The notes beneath the pieces were generated by a model, which saw only the letters and a program-made list of their open reading frames with translations, was not told where the DNA came from and searched no databases. From Rikenellaceae bacterium (GTDB lineage: Bacteria > Bacteroidota > Bacteroidia > Bacteroidales > Rikenellaceae), in NCBI GenBank assembly GCA_044433645.1, contig JAWXTK010000027.1, positions 1 to 17,717 on the forward strand: a DNA stretch of 17,717 nucleotides. Direction: 5' to 3'. The number at the start of each line of letters is the position of its first letter. Within the stretch, counting starts at the first letter, position 1. The position numbers and the translations under genes are program-made. Below are positions 1 to 17,592 of this stretch, in pieces.

Positions 1-273
1 TCAAAAAACAAAGCTATAAGAGTTGATGTGCTTTACACTAATAACGGTGGAGCTAACGATGAGGAATGGTTTAGAATCAAGGATGTAAAATTCGCTAATG
101 GTCGTGCTGAGTGTACTTTGCCTGAGGATGCTACTCATTATTTGTGGGGATTGGTTGATGATGCTAACTTCTATTATAGCTATCCAGATATGGGCGCAGC
201 TAAAGACTTTAGTGTTAAAAAAGGCACTAAGTTCTCAAGCAAAGCCTTAAAAGTTAAAGAAAATGAATTTTAG
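1..273 (+). CDS. Hypothetical protein, 5'-truncated (C-terminal ~90 aa only)
   Basis: Frame 1 is open from nt 1 with no stop before 271..273, so the ORF most likely continues upstream of the window. The listed M at 28 is probably internal. No recognisable motif. Stop overlaps the start region of the sulfatase gene (263). Confidence 0.45.
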   Translation, partial: SKNKAIRVDVLYTNNGGANDEEWFRIKDVKFANGRAECTLPEDATHYLWGLVDDANFYYSYPDMGAAKDFSVKKGTKFSSKALKVKENEF

Positions 274-1708
274 AGTTAAAGAAAACTATCCGTGTTTAAT
301 CACGCTTTTGCCGTGCGTGACTTTTATTAGTTGCTCGCAGTTGGAGAATAGTGTCACTAGTGCAGGTAGTTTGAAAAACTCTAAGGCTAATATTATTTTT
401 ATTTTTGCTGATGATTGGGGTTATGGAGATCTCTCGGCTCATGGTCATAGTGAGCTGAGAACTCCTAATTTAGATAAGATGATAAGCGAGGGCATGGATT
501 TTAAACAATTTAATGTTTGTAGTCCAGTGAGCTCTTCGTCGAGGGTGGGGGTTATTACGGGTAATTTTCCCTCTAGGCATGGTATTCATCAACAATTATC
601 AACTTTAGAAACAAATAAATCTAGGTGTATGCCGCATTGGCTATCAAATGATGCTGATATGGTATTGCTACCCAGGCTTTTACAGAGCGCAGGTTACAAA
701 ACGGCACACTACGGTAAGTGGCATTTGACTAGCAACCATGCTGTGGATATTGCTCCTATTCCTAAAGACTATGGTTATGATGATGCCATAGTGTATAACG
801 GAGGTGGTGCGCAGGTAGAGGATGGACCTGTGGGTTACGAATCATCTGTTTGGACAGAGTATTGTGTGGACTATACCATAGATTTTATAGAGAAAAATAA
901 GGCTAATCCTTTCTTTGTGAATCTGTGGATACACGAATCTCATCAAGACATACAGCCAACACCTCTAATGCGCGAACAATACCCTAATACAGCTGAGCCT
1001 TATCAATCATATTATTCTGTGATTACTTCGGCTGATAGTCATATAGGGCGTTTAATGGATTACTTAAAAGAGGCTGGTTTAGATGAAAATACCTTGGTGA
1101 TTTTCTCCTCAGACAATGGACCAGAGACCCCTGATGATGGTGATAACTGGACCTCGCGAGGACAAACAGCAGGTCTAAGAGGACAGAAACGTAGCTTGTA
1201 TGAGGGAGGCGTGAAAGTGCCTTTTATAGTCTATATGCCAGGGACAGTACCCAAGGGTAAGGTTAATGATGTTACTCAGTTTGCTGCAGTGGATTTACTG
1301 CCTACCTTTGCTAGTATTGCAGGTGTAGATTTACCTGATGATTATGAGTGCGACGGCGAGGATGTATTAGATTTGTTTGAAAATAAATCTTTTGAGAAAA
1401 CCAAACCTGTGTTGCAATATTGGCAGGGATTATCTGATACAGATACTTGGCCTAGACTCTCGGCTAAGGATAATACATATAAATTGGTTAGTGATGAATA
1501 TGAGGAAATGTTTATGGGAGGAACAACCAAACTTTATAATCACTTAAATGATTGGGGTGAGGATGTGAATTTGCTAGAGGATACAACTAACCCTAGTTAT
1601 GATAAATATTTAAGCAAGGCACAGGAATTATATGGTTTAGTTCAAACTTATTACAATGAGATAGACTTTGAATATTGGGGAACAACTTGGCACGAAGAAA
1701 ATCCTTAG
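263..1708 (+). CDS. Sulfatase (S1 family, arylsulfatase-like) lipoprotein; FGly-site motif is S-S-S-S-R instead of C/S-x-P-x-R
   Basis: N-terminal lipoprotein signal (..LLPCVTFISC). Metal-binding IIFIFADDWGYGD. Block TPNLDKM..F.NVCSPVSSSSRVGVITGNFPSRHG aligns gap-free to the canonical sulfatase signature (SPV-CSPSR-AALLTGRYPHRTG). GKWHL, SDNGPE and YEGGVKVPF motifs are all present. Confidence 0.85.
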   Translation: MNFRVKENYPCLITLLPCVTFISCSQLENSVTSAGSLKNSKANIIFIFADDWGYGDLSAHGHSELRTPNLDKMISEGMDFKQFNVCSPVSSSSRVGVITGNFPSRHGIHQQLSTLETNKSRCMPHWLSNDADMVLLPRLLQSAGYKTAHYGKWHLTSNHAVDIAPIPKDYGYDDAIVYNGGGAQVEDGPVGYESSVWTEYCVDYTIDFIEKNKANPFFVNLWIHESHQDIQPTPLMREQYPNTAEPYQSYYSVITSADSHIGRLMDYLKEAGLDENTLVIFSSDNGPETPDDGDNWTSRGQTAGLRGQKRSLYEGGVKVPFIVYMPGTVPKGKVNDVTQFAAVDLLPTFASIAGVDLPDDYECDGEDVLDLFENKSFEKTKPVLQYWQGLSDTDTWPRLSAKDNTYKLVSDEYEEMFMGGTTKLYNHLNDWGEDVNLLEDTTNPSYDKYLSKAQELYGLVQTYYNEIDFEYWGTTWHEENP

Positions 1709-2776
1709 ATGATGAGAAAAATAGTTTACATATTAGTTAATTGTTTGCTTTGTTTAGCTTGCCAAAAAGAGTTAAGTGTAAGTGATGATGTTTTTATCTC
1801 TATTGATAATGTTGCTAGTTTGAGTGATTTTTCTCAGTATTCTTATCCTGAGATGGAAAATACGTGGATAATTACAGACCAAGAGGCAAGTTTAGAGTCT
1901 TTACAGGGGCTTTGCTCTGCGCTAAAGGCTGCTCAAGATAGAGAGATAAGTTTAGAGTTTGTAAATTTGGTGGAGTTTCCTAGTTCTATAAGTTTTGAAA
2001 TTGCTCCCTTTAGAGACATTGTTTCTTTGGTTAGTGTGTCTTTGCCTAAAGCAACAAGCATAGGTAGCTGGGTGTTTTTTGAGAGTAATTCTCTACGAGA
2101 AATATATGCACCTAAGCTTAATTATGTAGGGGAGTATGCTTTTTACAATAACCAGAATCTTGAGAACATAGTTTGTTCTTCTGTGCTTAGTGTGGGAGAT
2201 TATGCTTTTTATTTGTGCTCAAACTTAGCGAGTGTATACCCACTAGAACAAGAGATTACTAGCTCTAGTGAGACAATAGGCTGTTATGCGTTTTATGAAT
2301 GTGATTCGTTGAGACAGTTTCCTATGTGGTCGGTGAGTGAAGTGGGCGAGGCTTCGTTTTATGGGTGTAATGTGTTGAGTGATTTAAACTTTTTGTCGCT
2401 CAGCAAAATGGGAGAAAAGGCTTTTTATAATTGTTATGCTTTATCAGAAATTATTTTGCCTATGTTGTCTGTATTGCCCAATAGTGCTTTTAGAGGATGC
2501 TCATCTTTAATTAGTGTTGTGGCAGGGATGTGTGGTGAACTTCACTATGATGCTTTGACAAAGTGTAAAAATCTTACTACTTTGGAGCTATCAACATCGC
2601 TTAATGCTTTGCTTAGTTATGTAGACGAGGGATGTTTTACGGGATCTAATACCCAAACTAAACCTTCGTCTATAAGTCTTAGCTTAGGTGCTTATAGTAA
2701 AGATTTTACGGTTGTAGACAAACAACTAGATTGTGGTGATTATAGTATTGTTTTTAAGGAGATTCTACTAAAATAA
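1709..2776 (+). CDS. Lipoprotein with BspA-type leucine-rich repeats (LRR_5-like)
   Basis: Signal + lipobox (LLCLACQKE). At least six ~23-aa repeats of the form G(E/D)YAFYxCxxLxxI (GEYAFYNNQNLENI, GDYAFYLCSNLASV, GCYAFYECDSLRQF, GEASFYGCNVLSDL, GEKAFYNCYALSEI, PNSAFRGCSSLISV). ATG directly abuts the sulfatase TAG. Confidence 0.7.
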   Translation: MMRKIVYILVNCLLCLACQKELSVSDDVFISIDNVASLSDFSQYSYPEMENTWIITDQEASLESLQGLCSALKAAQDREISLEFVNLVEFPSSISFEIAPFRDIVSLVSVSLPKATSIGSWVFFESNSLREIYAPKLNYVGEYAFYNNQNLENIVCSSVLSVGDYAFYLCSNLASVYPLEQEITSSSETIGCYAFYECDSLRQFPMWSVSEVGEASFYGCNVLSDLNFLSLSKMGEKAFYNCYALSEIILPMLSVLPNSAFRGCSSLISVVAGMCGELHYDALTKCKNLTTLELSTSLNALLSYVDEGCFTGSNTQTKPSSISLSLGAYSKDFTVVDKQLDCGDYSIVFKEILLK

Positions 2777-5101: not shown

Positions 5102-6388
5102 ATGAGATATTTGTTAATTATATTTTCTTTGTTGCTGCTCTCGTGTGAGAGCGAAGAAATAGTTGAGTTTGTAACCAACGGCGAAAAGTATGAGGACACT
5201 GAGCTAGATTTGAGCTATGCCCCTGAGTGTTACCCAGTCTTTTCGTGGGATAAAGTGCCTTTGAATGGTCACTTTAGCAAGGATACTGATAACTTTACAG
5301 ACGAGGAGGCTGAGTTTATCGCCAACACTTACAGCTTTGTGACTTTAGAAAAAAATCAAGGTAACCCAGATGTGGGGGCTGATATTGAGACTCCTAAGGA
5401 TGCTGCCTTGATTAAACAATATAATTCTGATTGTAAGGTGCTATTGTATTGGAACACTCGTAATGATTATGGTGATATGTGGTCTACGGGTTCAAATTTA
5501 ATTTATAACCCTACGACCAAGGATACAGCCTCGGCTAAGAATTTTGAGTGGATACTCTATGACGGAGTTACCTATTATAATGATGGAACGGATTATCGCC
5601 ATAGGTTTGATCCTAGAAACGAAGAAATGAGCCTGTGGTGGACTTCTGTTGCTGTGGATATGATAGCTGAGCATAGCTCGCTTGACGGAATTTTTGCAGA
5701 CGGTGTTATGAGCTATGTTGAAAGTAGCTCTACTGTTATGACGCGCCTAGATACTTATTATGGCGCAGGGCAGGGTGATGCTTACCGTTATGAAGGGCTA
5801 GATATGTTAGGTAATGTTACCTCTAGTTATAATAATCAAAATCTTGTAATTGCTAATTGTATTCGTGCTCAGCGTAGTGCCTTGCCTGATAGCGAGGGTA
5901 GAGACGGATTCTTAGGTCTTGATTATTGTCACGGAGGTATGTTAGAGCATTTTGCTTGCCCAGGTACAGCCTCTTATACTAAAGATTATATACTCCAAGA
6001 TATAGAGTATATAGAAACAGCCTCATCCATAGGCAAAATCACTGTGGTGAAGGGCTGGCCTAGATATAAATGGACAGATGATATATTAGACACAATGAGC
6101 GATGCTGAAAAAGAGGCTATGCTTAGAGAAGATATAGTTTTCCCATTGGCTTGCTACTTACTAGGGGCAGGTGAGTACAGTTACTTTGCTTACTCGTGGG
6201 GCTATCGTATGGAGCACGGTTGGATGTATGACTATGAAGAATTTAATAAACCCCTGGGTGCTCCTCAGGGTGCTAAGGTAAAGGTTAAACCTGGCGATAG
6301 TAGTAGTTATGAGTACACTCGCGAGTTTGAACATGCTCACGTTTGGGTTGATATTGAGAGCTTCACAGCCGAAATAACTTGGTTGTAA
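5102..6388 (+). CDS. Putative TIM-barrel glycoside-hydrolase-like lipoprotein (GH114/GHL-type), paralog A
   Basis: Signal + lipobox with strong acidic export-signal-like tail (LLSCESEEIVEF). Shares blocks with the next ORF: FSWDKV, LEKNQG, DG(I/V)F(A/I)D, EDIVFPLAC(Y/F)L(L/V)GAGE..YF.YSWGY, NKPLG, YTREFE.A.VWVD.ES. The DG-hydrophobic-F-x-D block is typical of the GH114/GHL clan. Exact family not determinable by eye. Confidence 0.55.
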   Translation: MRYLLIIFSLLLLSCESEEIVEFVTNGEKYEDTELDLSYAPECYPVFSWDKVPLNGHFSKDTDNFTDEEAEFIANTYSFVTLEKNQGNPDVGADIETPKDAALIKQYNSDCKVLLYWNTRNDYGDMWSTGSNLIYNPTTKDTASAKNFEWILYDGVTYYNDGTDYRHRFDPRNEEMSLWWTSVAVDMIAEHSSLDGIFADGVMSYVESSSTVMTRLDTYYGAGQGDAYRYEGLDMLGNVTSSYNNQNLVIANCIRAQRSALPDSEGRDGFLGLDYCHGGMLEHFACPGTASYTKDYILQDIEYIETASSIGKITVVKGWPRYKWTDDILDTMSDAEKEAMLREDIVFPLACYLLGAGEYSYFAYSWGYRMEHGWMYDYEEFNKPLGAPQGAKVKVKPGDSSSYEYTREFEHAHVWVDIESFTAEITWL

Positions 6389-6411
6389 ATACAAAACTTT
6401 AAAATGTTTTT

Positions 6412-7578
6412 ATGAGATTAAATTTAATTGCTTTTTTCACACTCATTTTATGTAGTGTAAATCTTTTTGCTCAAAAGCCAACAGAGGCCTATCCCGATTT
6501 TTCGTGGGATAAAGTGTCGGTTTGCATACACCTGGGCAAGAGTACAGATGATTTTACGGCTAAGGAAACGAAATTTCTTTCGAGATTTCCCATAGTGTGC
6601 TTAGAAAAAAATCAAGGCCTTAATAAACACGGAGCCATGGAACTTGGCACTATTGCAGCTGGTAAAGCTATTAAAGAGTATAACCCAGATACAAAAATCT
6701 TATTTTACTTTAATAGCTGTATAGATTTTGGCGAAATGTATATGACAGGTTATATGCTCAGCGATGATGCTAACCCAGATTGGGCTGTTAAAAGCCTTAA
6801 TGGCGAGTATGTGTTAATTAGAAACAGAACCAACAGACGTATGTATGATTATTCAAACGATAATATGCGCGAATGGTGGGTTTCGACAGCGAGAAAATGG
6901 ACTAGAAATAAATATATAGACGGTGTGTTTATAGATGCAATTCCAAAGTATGCAGCATCAACACCAACGCGTAAAAAACAATGGGGCGAGGAGAAATTTA
7001 ATGCTATTTACGCAGGTCTTCACTCAGCTTTAAGTGAGCTAAAAACCGAGCTTAATGGCGAAAAACTTATGATAGGTAATTTTTTAAGAGGAAACGAGAA
7101 AATTATGCCTGATATGGGAACTCACTTCCATGACTACACCGACGGAGGTATGATAGAACATTTGGGTATTTTAACCTGTTCGCCAAAAGAGCATATCGCA
7201 AAGGATATAGAGCTAATTCAGGATGCAGCCAAAAGAAAGAAAATTGTAGTTGTAAAAGCATGGCCTACTTTTAACTTTATGGAGATGGGAGATATGAAAA
7301 ACAAATCTCAGAAGGTAAAAGAGACAAAAGCAAGGGAGGATATAGTCTTTCCGTTGGCGTGTTTTTTAGTTGGAGCAGGTGAGTGGGCTTATTTCTGCTA
7401 TTCGTGGGGCTACGAACACACCCAAGGGGGTTTGGTTGATTACGCTGAGTATAATAAACCTTTGGGTAAACCCTTAGGCGATGCCGTTAAAACAGACTGG
7501 GTTTACACGCGCGAATTTGAGAGAGCAAGCGTATGGGTAGACTTAGAAAGTAGACAAGCAAAAATTAATTGGAGATAA
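6412..7578 (+). CDS. Putative TIM-barrel glycoside-hydrolase-like protein, paralog B (SPI-type signal, not a lipoprotein)
   Basis: About 35-40% identical to 5102..6388 over conserved blocks (AYPDFSWDKV, CLEKNQG, IDGVFIDA, EDIVFPLACFLVGAGEWAYFCYSWGY, YNKPLGKPLG, YTREFERASVWVDLES). N-terminus MRLNLIAFFTLILCSVNLFAQK looks like a type I signal peptide. Confidence 0.55.
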   Translation: MRLNLIAFFTLILCSVNLFAQKPTEAYPDFSWDKVSVCIHLGKSTDDFTAKETKFLSRFPIVCLEKNQGLNKHGAMELGTIAAGKAIKEYNPDTKILFYFNSCIDFGEMYMTGYMLSDDANPDWAVKSLNGEYVLIRNRTNRRMYDYSNDNMREWWVSTARKWTRNKYIDGVFIDAIPKYAASTPTRKKQWGEEKFNAIYAGLHSALSELKTELNGEKLMIGNFLRGNEKIMPDMGTHFHDYTDGGMIEHLGILTCSPKEHIAKDIELIQDAAKRKKIVVVKAWPTFNFMEMGDMKNKSQKVKETKAREDIVFPLACFLVGAGEWAYFCYSWGYEHTQGGLVDYAEYNKPLGKPLGDAVKTDWVYTREFERASVWVDLESRQAKINWR

Positions 7579-7733: not shown

Positions 7734-8168
7734 ATGAAAAAATATATAGTTTATTTAATATTATCGGCACTGATTTTTGCTGGGTGTCAAGAAGATTTAG
7801 AGTTTGAGGCAATAGTTGTGCCTGAGGCCTTGCTTTTAGTGTCACTTCCTGGGGGAGATAACTCATCACGTGTGAGCTTTGCTGATAGTAATGGTGAAAT
7901 ATCGCTTACGTGGAAAGGTGGCGATACTTTTGGGGTGTATGATAGCGCTGGTGAAAGAGTTTCAGATTATAAATATACGGCAAATAGTTCGGGTGGTGCA
8001 GCTTTGTTTGAAGCTAGTGATAACACTAATTTGTTGGTTAATGGTAGCAGTTACACAGCCGTTTACCCTGCCGTAGATAATGCTACAAACCTTGATGAGC
8101 ACAGAGAAATATTAGTAGGCAGAGTCTTAGAGCAAACACAAGGGGCTATAATTCTATGGACCATTTAA
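7734..8168 (+). CDS. N-terminal fragment (signal peptide + lipobox + first domain) of a surface lipoprotein; 5' part of a frameshifted gene
   Basis: MKKYIVYLILSALIFAGCQEDLEFE is a classic lipoprotein signal with an acidic surface-export-like tail. The ORF ends at TAA 8166..8168 only 13 nt after the next ORF's ATG, and the frame-2 ORF is open from 8099. Confidence 0.5.
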   Translation: MKKYIVYLILSALIFAGCQEDLEFEAIVVPEALLLVSLPGGDNSSRVSFADSNGEISLTWKGGDTFGVYDSAGERVSDYKYTANSSGGAALFEASDNTNLLVNGSSYTAVYPAVDNATNLDEHREILVGRVLEQTQGAIILWTI

Positions 8169-9061
8169 ACGATGCGCTATGTATGGAGGCTAATTTTACT
8201 TATTCTTCTAGCTCTAGCACAAAAGTTAGTTTTGCACATAGTTTTGCCACTATGCGCATGACTTTTTCTTTGGAGGATAATCAGATTCCTGCAAAATTAG
8301 AATTTACAGATGGTGATTACGCTACATACACTATTAATATGAGTGATGTTAGCTCGTCGGATAGTTATACTGTGTATTATGTGATTTTCCCACACGAGGG
8401 TGGTGAGAGAAATTTATCGTATGGCATCACAACTATACACGACGAATTATATTATTATAAGTTAGTTTGCTCTACAACTTACTATGAGGGTCAAAATTAT
8501 ATAGCTACTATACCAGGACTTACTTTGTTTTATATCCCAGATGGATATACCCCTATTTACTTTGACGTGGACTTATACAATATTAGAGATGATCTTTCGG
8601 GGCAATATATTTTGATGAATGATATTACTTTGTCTGGTTATGATAATTGGACACCGATAGGCACTAGTTCTAATTATTTCTCTGGTGTTTTCTCTGGTGG
8701 AGGTTTTACTATCTCGGGCCTTAATATTAATTCTGAGGATGATTACCAAGGACTATTTGGCTACGTGAGTGGCGCAACTATTAAAAATGTTATTGTCAAA
8801 GAGCCTTCTATTCAAGTAGGTCAATACTCAGGCGCAGTTGTCGGATATTTTTCTGATTACTCTGTTACATCTTGTTATTATTTAGAGATAACAGGCACTT
8901 CTTATACTAATGAGTATGGCACAGCATCTAGTGAAGCGACTATGAAAGCTTCTAGTTTTGTAACTACACTTAACTCGGCTGCTGGCTCAACTTACTTTAA
9001 ACAAGATACAAACAATTATAACGACGGCTATCCTATACTTGTTGGGTTAGATTACAATTAA
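8156..9061 (+). CDS. C-terminal portion of the same surface protein: GLUG-like (beta-helix) repeat region; most likely fused to 7734..8168 in the intact gene
   Basis: No signal peptide of its own, although the content is clearly extracytoplasmic. GLUG-like repeats: NYFSGVFSGGGFTISGLNINS, YQGLFGYVSGATIKNVIVKE, QYSGAVVGYFSD. A +1 G in the G4 tract at 8142..8145 would join both ORFs into one ~445-aa lipoprotein. Confidence 0.5.
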   Translation: MDHLNDALCMEANFTYSSSSSTKVSFAHSFATMRMTFSLEDNQIPAKLEFTDGDYATYTINMSDVSSSDSYTVYYVIFPHEGGERNLSYGITTIHDELYYYKLVCSTTYYEGQNYIATIPGLTLFYIPDGYTPIYFDVDLYNIRDDLSGQYILMNDITLSGYDNWTPIGTSSNYFSGVFSGGGFTISGLNINSEDDYQGLFGYVSGATIKNVIVKEPSIQVGQYSGAVVGYFSDYSVTSCYYLEITGTSYTNEYGTASSEATMKASSFVTTLNSAAGSTYFKQDTNNYNDGYPILVGLDYN

Positions 9062-9106: not shown

Positions 9107-10291
9107 ATGGCATTATTTGATAAATCGACTCAGGCCTATGACGGTCAACAGTCAAAAGGAACTAACAAGGGAATGGTGGGCTCTACTATATTCTGGCGCC
9201 CTGAATCTAATGAGGCAATGGTTTATAAATATGCTCACGATGATATTCGTAACGGAGCTATTGTTGTAACTCACCAATCTCAAAGAGCGTATTTGTTTCT
9301 TAACGGAGCACTTGCTCACAGTATTCCTCCCTCAGGGGGCCAATACAAACTTGAAACTGCAAACATCCCCTTGTTTGCTAAGTGGCTTAATGCTGCTACC
9401 GGAGGTACAACTCACAGCCCTGCTGAGATTTGGTTTGTAAATGTAGAAACTGAGCGAGCTGCTCTGTGGGGTTTGGGCGATTTGCCAATTATGGACCACT
9501 CTATGGGTGTAGAATTTATTATCGGAGCTAGAGGTGGTTACAATATTAAAATCGTAGACGGAGCATTGCTATTGATGAAATTAGTGGGTGCACTTGATGA
9601 TTTCTCAACTAATGAATTTCTTAGTTATTTCAAACAAAAAATTCGCTCTATCGTAGCTCAGGCTATTTCAGATGTGGTTGAGACTGAGAAATTGTCTATG
9701 CTTTCACTTCAAAGAAACAGAAAAACGCTTGAGATAAAGGTTGAGGAATTTATTAATCGCGAGCTAGAGGCCTATGGTGTTTGTATTAAAAACTTTGCAG
9801 TTGAGAATTTTAATATCCCAGAAGAATATCGCGAGGTTCTTAAAGAGCAAACTAAAGGCCTAGCAGAAAGAAAACGCCTTGATCAACTTGGTGTGGCTTA
9901 TGCTCAGGAGCGCCACTTTGATATTATGGACAATGCTGCCAAAAACGAAGGTGGCACAGTAGGCTCACTAATGGGAGCAGGCATGGGACTAACCATGGGC
10001 GCTGGCGTAGGTCAGGCTATGGGTAACAGCCTTAACCAAGGCTTTAGTCAGGCATCTTCGCCCACTGCACCTCCTCCGATTCCTCAGGCTAAGGAATACT
10101 ATCTAGCTATTAACGGACAGCAAGCAGGGCCTATGGGCGTGGCAGGGATTCAAGAAATGATTAATCAAGCTCAGGCAAATTCTCAAACACTTTATTGGTG
10201 TCAAGGAATGGGTGACTGGGAGCCAATCTCTAGTTCAACAGAATTAACTGGAGCCCTTAAATTCTTACCACCAGCTATCCCTACACTTTAA
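9107..10291 (+). CDS. SPFH/Band-7 family protein (Band_7_1, PF13421-like) with C-terminal DUF4339 (GYF-like) domain
   Basis: N-terminus MALFDK...IFWRPESNEAMVYKYAHDDIRNGAIVVTHQSQRAYLFLNGALA matches the conserved start of Band_7_1 proteins. A central SPFH-like region is followed by a Gly/Met-rich segment and a Pro-rich linker (PTAPPPIPQA). C-terminal EYYLAINGQQAGPMGVAGIQEMINQAQANSQTLYWCQGMGDWEPIS is the DUF4339 signature. Confidence 0.75.
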   Translation: MALFDKSTQAYDGQQSKGTNKGMVGSTIFWRPESNEAMVYKYAHDDIRNGAIVVTHQSQRAYLFLNGALAHSIPPSGGQYKLETANIPLFAKWLNAATGGTTHSPAEIWFVNVETERAALWGLGDLPIMDHSMGVEFIIGARGGYNIKIVDGALLLMKLVGALDDFSTNEFLSYFKQKIRSIVAQAISDVVETEKLSMLSLQRNRKTLEIKVEEFINRELEAYGVCIKNFAVENFNIPEEYREVLKEQTKGLAERKRLDQLGVAYAQERHFDIMDNAAKNEGGTVGSLMGAGMGLTMGAGVGQAMGNSLNQGFSQASSPTAPPPIPQAKEYYLAINGQQAGPMGVAGIQEMINQAQANSQTLYWCQGMGDWEPISSSTELTGALKFLPPAIPTL

Positions 10292-11051: not shown

Positions 11052-11462
11052 ATGTCAAAACAATCAAATTGCCCTAAGTGTGGCGCGAAAATGAATTTTG
11101 ATGAGGCGCAATACATTATGGTTTGCCCTTATTGTGAAGAGGAAATACGCTTAGAGAGACCTGCCACTCCTCCACCTGCTCAGCCTGCGCAAGCAACTCT
11201 TAGCGATGAACAGTTAAGAAGAATATCAGCGCAGATGAGACAAAATCAAGCTCCACCAAGACCTCGTAAAAGCAAATCTACGGCTATTATTCTGTGCTTT
11301 TTCTTAGGTATGTTGGGCATACATCAATTTTATCTTGGCAACACTTGGCGAGGTATAGGCTACCTTGTCTTAACGTGTTCGGTAGTTGGTGCTTGGCTAG
11401 CAGCTATAATTTTATTTATTGATTTTATCGTTCTTTGCTGCACAAGCGAAGATTCATTCTAA
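11052..11462 (+). CDS. Zinc-ribbon + TM2-domain membrane protein
   Basis: N-terminal CPKCG-x17-CPYC zinc ribbon, then a Pro-rich linker (PATPPPAQPAQA), then a C-terminal TM2 domain (PF05154 pattern): KSKSTAIILCFFLGMLGIHQFYLGNTWRGIGYLVLTCSVVGAWLAAIILFIDFIVL. Confidence 0.7.
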   Translation: MSKQSNCPKCGAKMNFDEAQYIMVCPYCEEEIRLERPATPPPAQPAQATLSDEQLRRISAQMRQNQAPPRPRKSKSTAIILCFFLGMLGIHQFYLGNTWRGIGYLVLTCSVVGAWLAAIILFIDFIVLCCTSEDSF

Positions 11463-11883: not shown

Positions 11884-12198
11884 TTAAGCAATAATAATAT
11901 CATCAATAAGGATTTGAGTTAGGAATTGTCTATGACCATTTTTTACTCTGTATCCTTTTCTACGTTTTTTCTTGAACACTATGACTTTGTCGTCTTTTAA
12001 GTGTTTAAGAATCGTAGCATTGATTGAGGCCCCTTCAATAACAGGTGTGCCTACATTTACCTGACCGTCGTTGTCTGTTAGCAGGATTTTGTCGAAACTC
12101 AAAGAAGAACCTTCCTCTCCTTTAAGACGGTGAACATAGAGTTTGCGACCTTTTTCAACTTTAAATTGTTGACCTGCAATTTCTGCGATTACGTACAT
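11884..12198 (-). CDS. rplU: 50S ribosomal protein L21
   Basis: MYVIAEIAGQQFKVEKG..L.V..L......V.FDKILL is the conserved L21 N-terminus. 104 aa. Lies 19 nt upstream of rpmA in the canonical rplU-rpmA arrangement. Confidence 0.95.
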   Translation of the reverse strand: MYVIAEIAGQQFKVEKGRKLYVHRLKGEEGSSLSFDKILLTDNDGQVNVGTPVIEGASINATILKHLKDDKVIVFKKKRRKGYRVKNGHRQFLTQILIDDIIIA

Positions 12199-16737: not shown

Positions 16738-17592
16738 ATGCTAAGCAACGAACAAAGAATATTTCTGCTAACTAAAGCATACAATGCAGCACTTAGAGCA
16801 GGCAAGGTTATACTTGAATTATATGAGCAGGGCGCTGATAAAAACCAAGATATAGACCTTAAAACAGATTTGACACCTATTACTTTGGCAGATTTGCGAG
16901 CTCACGCAACTATCAAAGAATATCTTTCGCAAACACGCATACCTCTCTTGTCGGAAGAAGGGCGCGAGATGCAATATTTTGAGCGTTCACATTGGGACTT
17001 GTTTTGGATGGTTGACCCCCTGGATGGAACTAAGGAATTTTTGAAACGTAACGGAGAATTTACGGTGAGTATAGCTCTTATGGTGGATAATAAACCTCAG
17101 TTAGGGGTGATTTATGTGCCTTATTTAAGCAAAATTTACTTTAGCGACACCCAAGAAGGTTCGTTTGTTAAAGTTAATGCAGTGGCTGATGAGAATGCTG
17201 ATTTTAGCTATGCAGACATAGTTGAGGGTTGTGAGTCTTTGCCACTTAAAACTGAGTGTAACTCGCCTATAAAAGTAGGGGTGAGTCGCTCACATATTAA
17301 TGAGTTGACCTATAAATATATAGACTCACTTAGAGAAAAATATCCAGATTTGGAGACCGTGATTCAGGGTAGTTCTTATAAATTTTGTTTGCTAGCCGAG
17401 GGTGTAATAGACTATTATGTGCGTACAACAAATACCTATGAATGGGATACGGCAGCTGGCGAAGTTATACTGCAAATGACTGGTGGTGAAACACTTGAGT
17501 TAGATTCGCTGAAACCTATGGATTATAACAAAGAGAGTAGCTTGCAAAATCCTTTCTTTGTGTGCAAAAGCAAATTTTTTAAAGAAAAATAA
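16738..17592 (+). CDS. cysQ: Inositol-monophosphatase-family phosphatase, likely 3'(2'),5'-bisphosphate nucleotidase (CysQ-like)
   Basis: Diagnostic IMPase motif WMVDPLDGTKEFLKRNGEFTVSIALMVDNKPQLGVIYVP, with the E..E upstream (LLSEEGRE) and WDTAAG near the C-terminus. Size (284 aa) and overall pattern match CysQ. Confidence 0.7.
   Translation: MLSNEQRIFLLTKAYNAALRAGKVILELYEQGADKNQDIDLKTDLTPITLADLRAHATIKEYLSQTRIPLLSEEGREMQYFERSHWDLFWMVDPLDGTKEFLKRNGEFTVSIALMVDNKPQLGVIYVPYLSKIYFSDTQEGSFVKVNAVADENADFSYADIVEGCESLPLKTECNSPIKVGVSRSHINELTYKYIDSLREKYPDLETVIQGSSYKFCLLAEGVIDYYVRTTNTYEWDTAAGEVILQMTGGETLELDSLKPMDYNKESSLQNPFFVCKSKFFKEK

Follow-up and report, generated by a model that had tools for sequence, protein, structure and literature searches.

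A Rikenellaceae S1 sulfatase, most likely a working enzyme, from a clade with serine in place of the formylglycine-motif proline

The window analyzed here, a 17,717-nt stretch that is a single contig of a Rikenellaceae MAG, encodes at 263..1708 (+) a 481-aa S1 (formylglycine-type) sulfatase with S-S-S-S-R as its maturation motif. The same deviation characterizes a small clade of sulfatases with the motif (S/C)-S-(S/A)-S-R, in which Pro is replaced by Ser and less often by Ala. Judged by its conservation in this clade and its repeated origin, the rare (S/C)-x-S-x-R variant most likely belongs to a working enzyme and is neither a dead gene nor an error, although conservation as such speaks for constraint rather than for sulfatase activity. 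Specifically, the gene probably specifies an S1 sulfatase that is functional, exported, and formylglycine-dependent with a Ser-type site, and that would be matured by the radical-SAM enzyme anSME. The gene and its catalytic residues map as follows.

263..1708 (+), S1 sulfatase gene with a Pro-less motif (open reading frame, PF00884 and SGSH_C matches, AlphaFold2 model, and fold matches)
263..334 (+), putative N-terminal signal peptide with a probable lipoprotein cysteine (...TFISC24), as read from the translation
410..415 (+), Asp50-Asp51, first metal-binding pair (ADDWG), invariant in 14/14 clade members and 119/119 aligned homologues
716..724 (+), Lys152 and His154 (GKWHL), catalytic Lys/His pair, invariant in 120/120
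932..943 (+), His224 and His227 (IHESH), the former conserved in 119/120 and the latter in 120/120
1112..1117 (+), Asp284-Asn285 (SDNGP), second metal-binding pair, invariant in 120/120
1187..1189 (+), Lys309 (GQKRSLYEGG), conserved catalytic Lys, invariant in 120/120

The S1 sulfatase assignment made in a preliminary description of this DNA is borne out by domain content, catalytic residues, and predicted fold. A Pfam search with the 481-aa protein returned PF00884 (Sulfatase) at 4.5e-49 over residues 43-355, with 167.8 bits against a cutoff of 25 and profile positions 2-301 of 301 covered, i.e., across the whole catalytic domain; SGSH_C was also matched. The metal-binding Asp-Asp...Asp-Asn residues (D50, D51, D284, and N285), the Lys and His residues K152, H154, H227, and K309, and R94 are all invariant in the clade and in the 120 homologues, and His227 is by motif position the probable catalytic His of arylsulfatases. 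The motifs earlier described as intact were all located (ADDWGYGD at residue 49, GKWHL at 151, SDNGP at 283, and LYEGGVKVPF from ~312). The AlphaFold2 model (mean pLDDT of 90.2, with 10-residue block means of 96 across residues 81-100) predicts an alkaline-phosphatase-like fold with the nucleophile at the N terminus of a helix (residues 90-99) that begins at S90. Top Foldseek matches to the model were all S1 sulfatases (E down to 3e-34), the best being 3ed4, 7stt, 6psm, and 9fo1, with TM scores of about 0.70-0.75 normalized to the query. The Cys that ends the N-terminal hydrophobic stretch is also found in the closest relatives, P0002 and P0003. The putative signal peptide implies export, and maturation would then precede it, in the cytoplasm.

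The deviation resides in the segment 509..544, which reads TTT AAT GTT TGT AGT CCA GTG AGC TCT TCG TCG AGG and translates as F-N-V-C86-S87-P88-V89-S90-S91-S92-S93-R94. Its features are listed below.

518..544 (+), maturation/active-site motif C86-S-P-V-S90-S-S92-S-R94 (sequence, alignment, and model)
521..523 (+), S87 (AGT) in place of the usual Asn (alignment)
530..532 (+), S90 (AGC), the formylglycine precursor position (ungapped alignment)
536..538 (+), S92 (TCG) in place of the usual Pro (ungapped alignment)
542..544 (+), R94, the conserved Arg (alignment)
566..574 (+), P103-S104-R105 ("FPSR"), with S104 in place of the Ala of the canonical "PAR" (alignment)

Across residues 43-112 the alignment is free of gaps, both with all 119 full-length homologues and with the solved sulfatases 3ed4, 7an1, and 6psm. 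It identifies S90 with the formylglycine position and S92 with the Pro position, so both the Ser-type site and the Pro-to-Ser replacement proposed earlier hold, and the codons given for them (agc tct tcg tcg agg at 530..544) match the DNA exactly. S90 and R94 are included in the tryptic peptide Q82-R94 (residues 82-94), QFNVCSPVSSSSR. They provide the Cys/Ser nucleophile precursor and the Arg at +4, which are the two essential residues of the motif (PMC5066984). Against the sulfatase signature, which needs Pro or Ala at +2, the segment P88-V-S-S-S92-S-R-V-G-V-I-T-G deviates at S92 alone. This signature is a descriptive pattern and does not define the family.

To place the variant among its relatives, a neighbour-joining tree was built with the motif columns left out and bootstrapped with 200 replicates. 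The query belongs to a clade of 14 proteins (P0001-P0014) that are 50-61% identical and grouped in 199/200 replicates; the closest canonical C-S-P-S-R homologues of the same architecture are 45-53% identical to the query. Pro is absent from 13 of the 14 members, Ser taking its place in 11 and Ala in 2 (motif S-S-A-S-R). This settles the question raised in the preliminary description of whether S-S-S-S-R is a subfamily trait or a singleton: the singleton reading is rejected, and the orthologues, inspected for a canonical S-x-P-x-R that would have pointed to an error, share the Pro-less motif. A second occurrence, C-S-S-S-R in P0025/P0026, is nested within a clade of canonical 787-aa proteins that bear a type IX secretion (T9SS) tail (168/200) and never grouped with the main clade (0/200). 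These two proteins share 73-83% identity with their canonical neighbours versus ~50-55% with the main clade, and their motif flanks (81-83% versus ~54%) reject a large N-terminal gene-conversion block as the cause. The flanks of a third Pro-less case, P0046, are ambiguous in this respect. On this phylogenetic evidence, Pro-to-Ser has arisen independently in at least two lineages besides the query clade. Among more distant representatives, Ser occupies +2 in P0177, P0214, and P0245, and Thr, Val, or His in others.

Codon usage within the clade is informative at both positions. The nucleophile position is Ser in 11 members and Cys in 3, with nothing else; the Ser codon is AGC in the window gene and P0006, and TCA/TCT in P0003, P0008, P0010, and the paralogue of P0010. 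Each of these codon types is one step from Cys TGY and at least two steps from the other, which indicates repeated Cys/Ser switching. At the Pro position, all four TCN codons are in use across lineages, indicating that selection has maintained this Ser through synonymous turnover. The variant is nonetheless rare. A scan of species-representative genomes found 2 Pro-less motifs among 85 of the family (one C-S-S-S-R in a Chitinophaga MAG and one C-S-A-S-R) and did not recover the Rikenellaceae/Paludibacter clade itself. A metagenome DNA-pattern scan gave one exact hit, a P0011-like gene, but missed known JGI members and is thus a poor guide to prevalence. A mild disadvantage could account for this rarity.

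Two further positions covary with the substitution. Among unique motifs with Cys at -4, C-N...P occurs 34 times and C-S...S 15 times, and the mixed forms C-S...P and C-N...S are both absent. Residue 104, which is Ala in 78/120 proteins overall, is Ser in 14/14 clade members and changes in step with Pro-to-Ser. Rather than a simple tolerated substitution, these patterns may reflect a coupled remodelling of the formylglycine loop at three sites, recurring in at least three independent lineages, from C-N-P-V-C-S-P-S-R...P-A-R to C-S-P-V-(C/S)-S-S-S-R...P-S-R, a proposal that we put forward only tentatively and regard as rather doubtful. If true, the Pro-less form would be an alternative, selected maturation or active-site signature, which might reflect a change in how the maturase is presented with its target residue, or a substrate-tuned loop geometry. 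The substrate range of anSME would widen to (C/S)-x-S-x-R, and possibly that of FGE as well, given the Cys-type example in the Chitinophaga MAG.

The genomic surroundings of the gene point to glycan degradation and include the following features.

1..273 (+), 3' end of an upstream gene, probably of a different sulfatase and comprising only its C-terminal domain (weak similarity)
5102..6388 (+), putative glycoside hydrolase GHL15 (PF14885; Pfam 7.5e-30)
6412..7578 (+), putative glycoside hydrolase GHL15 (PF14885; Pfam 2.2e-40)

The upstream gene overlaps the sulfatase start by 11 nt. On a longer contig (L004), 274 aa of its product are available, with an SGSH_C match that is weak (7.9e-4) and misses the Pfam cutoff, and with weak similarity (25-32%) to C-terminal parts of the sulfatases in L091 and L006. 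The tandem GHL15 genes (5102..7578, +) are conserved neighbours of the Pro-less sulfatase: a polysaccharide-utilisation locus of a Paludibacter MAG (L006) contains the sulfatase and two GHL15 genes at 38-49% identity. This SusC/SusD locus, which has a hybrid two-component regulator, encodes two S-S-S-S-R sulfatases in tandem alongside a canonical Ser-type sulfatase (S-A-P-T-R), the GHL15 pair, a GH29 fucosidase, and an esterase. Other Pro-less members adjoin canonical C-x-P-x-R sulfatases. This side-by-side arrangement of Pro-less and canonical sulfatases implies that one maturase must serve both. No radical-SAM gene was found within the 17.7-kb window.

Published data on maturation bear on how such a site could be processed. 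The Pro, termed invariant in the preliminary description, is conserved in 87% of 4058 S1 sulfatases, with Ala in 369 and each other residue in <1%; ~4% of the sequences have neither Pro nor Ala at +2 (PMC5066984). The motif Arg is 99% conserved family-wide, and its equivalent in AtsA, Arg55, stabilises formylglycine (PMC5066984). The motif is accepted as (C/S)-x-(P/A)-x-R, and co-expression of a Clostridium perfringens C-I-A-S-R sulfatase with its anSME gave 100% conversion (PMC6189696). This maturase handles both SXPXR and CXAXR types, the latter being assigned to it (PMC2459300), and its contacts with the substrate mostly involve the backbone (PMC7771511). Only facultative or strict anaerobes possess Ser-type sulfatases (PMC5066984). 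The SXSXR motif of the query falls outside the documented anSME classes SXPXR, CXPXR, and CXAXR (PMC2459300, PMC6189696). Our literature search found no mention of C-S-S-S-R with a sulfatase and no formylglycine formation at S-x-S-x-R or C-x-S-x-R, the documented Pro-less substrates that it found all having Ala.

We propose that in the cytoplasm of the anaerobic Bacteroidales host (Rikenellaceae), anSME would oxidise Ser90 of the unfolded chain to formylglycine, and that the matured protein would then be exported, probably as a lipoprotein. The hydrated formylglycine would be held by Arg94, a Ca2+ site (Asp50, Asp51, Asp284, and Asn285), and Lys152/His154/His227/Lys309, and would hydrolyse a sulfate ester on a glycan that the neighbouring GHL15 enzymes may also process. 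Of the two alternatives offered in the preliminary description, we thus favour tolerance of a Pro-less site by anSME, by analogy with matured CXAXR sites and backbone-dominated contacts and in view of the conserved clade. The other, an unmatured pseudo-sulfatase or sulfate-ester-binding protein in which no maturase acts without Pro and Ser90 persists, so that the protein binds sulfated glycans or is idle, seems unlikely. The rarity of the variant and the missing precedent for a converted S-x-S-x-R site are what one would expect of it, as is the fact that no other non-catalytic residue in the motif is as conserved as Pro (PMC5066984). Yet every metal-binding and catalytic residue is invariant in a clade whose members are so diverged, which would be unexpected in a non-catalytic protein. 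Position 90 is restricted to the two formylglycine precursors, with repeated switching between them; the Ser at the Pro position is maintained by selection; anSME matures Pro-less C-x-A-x-R sites (PMC6189696, PMC2459300); and the substitution recurs independently, is retained, and sits in operon-like glycan loci.

Other enzymes of the alkaline-phosphatase superfamily use unmodified nucleophiles. The protein might likewise be an active hydrolase in which unmodified Ser90 (Cys in relatives) attacks another ester (a phosphodiester or phosphonate) or, slowly, sulfate esters. An unmodified choline sulfatase does perform many turnovers, with a low kcat (PMC6189696), the 481-aa protein matches Phosphodiest (PF01663) at 1.8e-11, and the NCBI name is "sulfatase-like hydrolase/transferase." We nevertheless consider this reading improbable. 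The PF01663 match is present in nearly all homologues listed and represents the usual sulfatase cross-hit, whereas the query keeps the full formylglycine-sulfatase catalytic set, including Arg94, the counterpart of AtsA Arg55 (PMC5066984). Ser/Cys interchange is a hallmark of formylglycine precursors in anaerobes, and the closest homologues of the same architecture are canonical.

Far less plausible is a register shift in which C86-S-P would be the true site, with Cys86 as the formylglycine precursor and four residues inserted ahead of the Arg. It draws on the identity of C86-S87-P88 with the first three residues of canonical C-S-P-S-R and on the occurrence of C-S-P at -4..-2 in Pro-less proteins only (15 versus 0). 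The preliminary description had allowed for this register with a 3-residue insertion, but four residues would be needed, and no homologue in the alignment supports an insertion of any kind. Moreover, position 86 is Gly in P0014, and many canonical relatives have N, A, L, V, or S there, whereas position 90 is strictly Ser/Cys and starts the predicted helix; an Arg at +4 from C86 is absent. C86 is accordingly rejected as the maturation site. The possibility that sequencing or assembly went wrong, or that one MAG recently acquired an inactivating mutation, has nothing but the motif's rarity in its favour and is refuted. Thirteen diverged clade members lack Pro, and the whole gene proved nucleotide-identical in at least four further, independently assembled runs (SRR26879385, SRR26879382, SRR27046594, and SRR27046589); in a fifth, the single differing base is well away from the motif.

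The C/S-x-P/A-x-R motif is what formylglycine sulfatases are recognised and annotated by, and it is also used to engineer them (e.g., as aldehyde tags). The conserved, recurrent (S/C)-x-S-x-R clade shows this motif to be looser than usually written, and annotation by pattern would overlook or misname such enzymes. The clade also offers a natural test substrate for the dependence of the radical-SAM maturase on Pro. The practical consequence is modest, since Ala sites are already known to be matured and rare other residues already figure in family-wide statistics.

Among solved sulfatases, the best matches to the query are 3ED4 (an E. coli putative arylsulfatase), 7STT (Pedobacter yulinensis), 6PSM (S1_19, kappa-carrageenan), and 9FO1 (S1_16), with sequence matches at E 4e-49 to 9e-39 but just 24-28% identity in structural alignment. 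The nearest structures include members of S1_15, S1_16, and S1_19 according to PDB descriptions, at similar distances from the query; 3ed4, 7an1, and 6psm carry S/C-x-P-x-R, whereas the query has S-S-S-S-R. The C. perfringens C-I-A-S-R sulfatase matured by anSMEcpe resembles the query in its Pro-less motif and anaerobic host and differs in having Ala at +2, a Cys precursor, and another sulfatase subfamily. A further close parallel is provided by the Ser-type S1 sulfatases of anaerobic Bacteroidota (S-x-P-x-R; anSME of the ChuR/AtsB type), with which the query shares the Pfam family, the fold, the full catalytic set, the Ser nucleophile position, putative export, a glycan-degradation neighbourhood, and an anaerobic Bacteroidales host. 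It departs from them in three serines, which replace Pro at +2, Asn at -3, and the Ala of the downstream P-A-R.

The sulfatase gene was delimited by translation of the open reading frame:

263..1708, forward strand: sulfatase, 481 codons

Its product matched PF00884 (Sulfatase; 4.5e-49) over the entire Pfam profile, with an SGSH_C domain at the C terminus. A second reading of the DNA at window positions 509..544 gave TTT AAT GTT TGT AGT CCA GTG AGC TCT TCG TCG AGG, i.e., F-N-V-C86-S87-P88-V89-S90-S91-S92-S93-R94, in exact agreement with the codons and coordinates of the preliminary description. Residues 43-112 aligned gap-free with 119/119 full-length homologues, and the motif was also free of gaps when 3ed4, 7an1, and 6psm, all solved sulfatases, were aligned by HMMER. 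Because these alignments are ungapped across the motif, S90 occupies the position of the formylglycine (FGly) precursor and S92 that of the usual Pro. The DNA reading and the alignment to the 119 homologues together confirm that S-S-S-S-R stands in place of the canonical C/S-x-P-x-R. The same protein was found on ten contigs, and in four sequencing runs, each assembled independently, the entire gene was nucleotide-identical. With a single base outside the motif differing in a fifth, a sequencing error is excluded. An AlphaFold2 model computed with 67 homologues as input is confident (mean pLDDT, 90.2, with means of 96 for the 10-residue blocks covering residues 81-100), and its predicted helix spanning residues 90-99 begins at S90. 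The top structural matches of the model were the S1 sulfatases 3ed4, 7stt, 6psm, and 9fo1 (TM about 0.75). Judged from the sequence, the protein has a signal peptide that ends in Cys24 and is probably a lipoprotein.

Inspection of the motif in the best 120 of 7369 scored homologues showed that nearly all of the nearest 13 proteins (50-61% identical) lack the Pro and carry S-S-S-S-R, C-S-S-S-R, or S-S-A-S-R; P0006 is the only one to keep it (S-S-P-S-R). Neighbor joining with the motif columns left out grouped 14 proteins (P0001-P0014) in one clade (bootstrap, 199/200). The Pro-less motif is common to nearly all of them, so the question of singleton or group trait is answered in favor of a clade trait. 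Pro-to-Ser replacement also occurs in P0025/P0026, which are nested (168/200) in a clade of canonical sulfatases that are 787 aa long and have a tail for type IX secretion (T9SS). These two never joined the main clade (0/200 bootstraps) and share 73-83% identity with their canonical neighbors, compared with about 50-55% for the main clade. The replacement is seen a third time in P0046. When 1.84 billion cluster representatives were searched, the 150 top-ranking diverse sulfatases gave, for the Pro position, P 159, A 12, S 3, V 2, and T 2, besides some spurious matches, and 85 family motifs from species-representative genomes included one Ser (a Chitinophaga MAG) and one Ala. Taken together, these counts indicate a rare yet recurrent variant. 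The Chitinophaga sp. sulfatase is Cys-type, with C-S-S-S-R encoded at 6127..6162 of contig L010. Chitinophaga is a largely aerobic genus, so one may ask whether FGE, the maturase that depends on oxygen, also acts on a Pro-less site.

Replacement of the Pro by Ser is accompanied by changes at two other sites of the FGly loop, as a comparison with P0025, P0026, P0046, P0177, and L010 shows:

521..523, forward strand: codon of S87 (position -3 from S90)
536..538, forward strand: codon of S92 (position +2)
569..571, forward strand: codon of S104

In every independent Pro-to-Ser lineage (at least three), the Asn at -3 is also Ser, always encoded by AGY, one step from Asn, and P-S-R or P-S-H stands in place of the downstream P-A-R. 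For the unique motifs that have Cys at -4, the counts were 34 for C-N…P, 15 for C-S…S, and 0 each for C-S…P and C-N…S, although Ser at -3 alongside Pro is common in other contexts (N-S-P-V, A-S-P-V). This pattern looks like coupled, convergent substitution in the loop.

No variation was seen at Asp50, Asp51, Arg94, Lys152, His154, His227, Asp284, Asn285, and Lys309, either within the clade (mean column identity, 59%) or across all 120 homologues. Position 90 is Ser in 11 clade members and Cys in 3, and nothing else. Codons for this position were located as follows:

530..532 of the window; 1100..1102 of contig L090; 1652..1654 of L092; 10265..10267 and 11924..11926 of L006 (a Paludibacter MAG); 2402..2404 of L091

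The window and P0006 use AGC for Ser90; P0003, P0008, P0010, and the tandem paralogue of P0010 use TCA or TCT, and a third group of clade members has Cys TGY. Both Ser codon types are one step from TGY and at least two steps from each other, so that the simplest history is repeated Cys/Ser switching between the only two FGly-convertible residues. At the Pro position, Ser is encoded by TCG, TCA, TCC, or TCT depending on the lineage, each one step from Pro CCN; by these codons, it is maintained through synonymous change. Judged from sequence, the invariant residues and codon patterns are unlike those of a decaying or merely binding protein. The pseudo-enzyme alternative of the preliminary description, i.e., a dead or binding-only protein, is therefore improbable, being at odds with an invariant catalytic set and a nucleophile position limited to Ser/Cys. 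We give equally little credence to hydrolysis by an unmodified Ser or Cys, for which there is general precedent and nothing further positive. A register shift making C86-S-P the true site is highly improbable, since the alignment has no gaps and P0014 has Gly at position 86.

The neighborhood of the gene comprises the following features:

1..273 (1..825 of L004, a longer contig), forward strand: 3' end of the upstream gene, overlapping the sulfatase start by 11 nt
1709..2776, forward strand: BspA-type leucine-rich-repeat protein, beginning at the base just after the sulfatase stop codon
2783..5095, forward strand: 770-aa protein, whose sole match, to FISUMP (TIGR02145) near the C terminus, is sub-threshold
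5102..6388 and 6412..7578, forward strand: tandem pair of GHL15 (PF14885) genes for putative glycoside hydrolases
7734..8168 and 8156..9061, forward strand: ORFs of 144 and 301 aa, without family match, overlapping by 13 nt in different frames
9107..10291, forward strand: SPFH/Band-7 protein with a GYF_2 domain
11052..11462, forward strand: zinc-ribbon plus TM2 membrane protein
11884..12198, reverse strand: 104-aa ORF, adjoining a ribosomal L27 gene (called on contig L002)
15165..16715, forward strand: 516-aa protein with a partial GH31 TIM-barrel match (8.6e-17)
16738..17592, forward strand: CysQ-like 3'(2'),5'-bisphosphate nucleotidase of sulfur-nucleotide metabolism (TIGR01331, 224.9 bits, just below the 228.8 cutoff)

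The upstream gene, known from 274 C-terminal residues, has a weak SGSH_C match and probably encodes another, unrelated sulfatase in tandem with this one. The Paludibacter contig L006 carries two tandem S-S-S-S-R sulfatases within a classical polysaccharide-utilization locus, together with a hybrid two-component regulator, SusC/SusD, an esterase, a GH29 fucosidase, and a canonical Ser-type sulfatase (S-A-P-T-R). Two GHL15 genes at L006 14573..17118 are homologous to those of the window, making this pair a conserved neighbor of the Pro-less sulfatase in the Rikenellaceae and Paludibacter MAGs. We found no literature report of biochemical characterization of GHL15. Canonical C/S-x-P-x-R sulfatases are also found next to P0005 (a Cys-type clade member), P0046, and P0006. 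The same maturase must then serve both kinds; otherwise, conserved operons would be carrying Pro-less genes of no use. Elsewhere in the window, the split between the 144- and 301-aa ORFs was called likewise on the independent contigs L001 and L002, pointing to either two genuine genes or a single surface-protein gene with a fixed frameshift. The 516-aa protein, by its partial match, is a divergent GH31-like enzyme with weak similarity to alpha-glucosidases/alpha-xylosidases. The 104-aa ORF is presumably ribosomal protein L21; it and the other housekeeping or unrelated genes at 9107..10291 and 11052..11462 lie between the glycan genes and the remainder of the window.

The Pro-less protein is thus likely to be a working Ser-type sulfatase, matured by the radical-SAM anaerobic sulfatase-maturating enzyme (anSME), exported, and active in glycan desulfation; we infer conversion, maturase, activity, and substrate. 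Cytoplasmic anSME would convert Ser90 to FGly in the still unfolded chain, and the sulfatase, then exported probably as a lipoprotein, would remove sulfate from a glycan co-processed by the adjacent GHL15 enzymes. The clade members bear the NCBI names of Rikenellaceae and Paludibacter MAGs, in line with the restriction of Ser-type sulfatases to facultative or strict anaerobes (PMC5066984).

The sulfatase motif is usually given as (C/S)-x-(P/A)-x-R (PMC6189696; PMC7771511). The Pro, described at the outset as invariant, is 87% conserved in 4058 S1 sulfatases, with Ala in 369 and any other residue below 1% each, and the updated S1 signature of the same authors permits [PA] (PMC5066984). Carlson et al. 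assigned two types, SXPXR and CXAXR, to anSME, and CXPXR to FGE (PMC2459300), and 100% conversion is listed for the C-I-A-S-R sulfatase of Clostridium perfringens co-expressed with its own anSME (PMC6189696). In the anSME-peptide structure, contacts are, according to a review, mostly with the peptide backbone, which explains the promiscuity of the enzyme (PMC7771511). Maturation of a C-x-A-x-R sulfatase and the Pro-less genes beside canonical ones favor the other alternative first raised, that the maturase may tolerate a Pro-less site. No literature report of a characterized (C/S)-x-S-x-R sulfatase was found; against this background, the Pro-less motif is a rare, uncharacterized variant in a well-known enzyme family.
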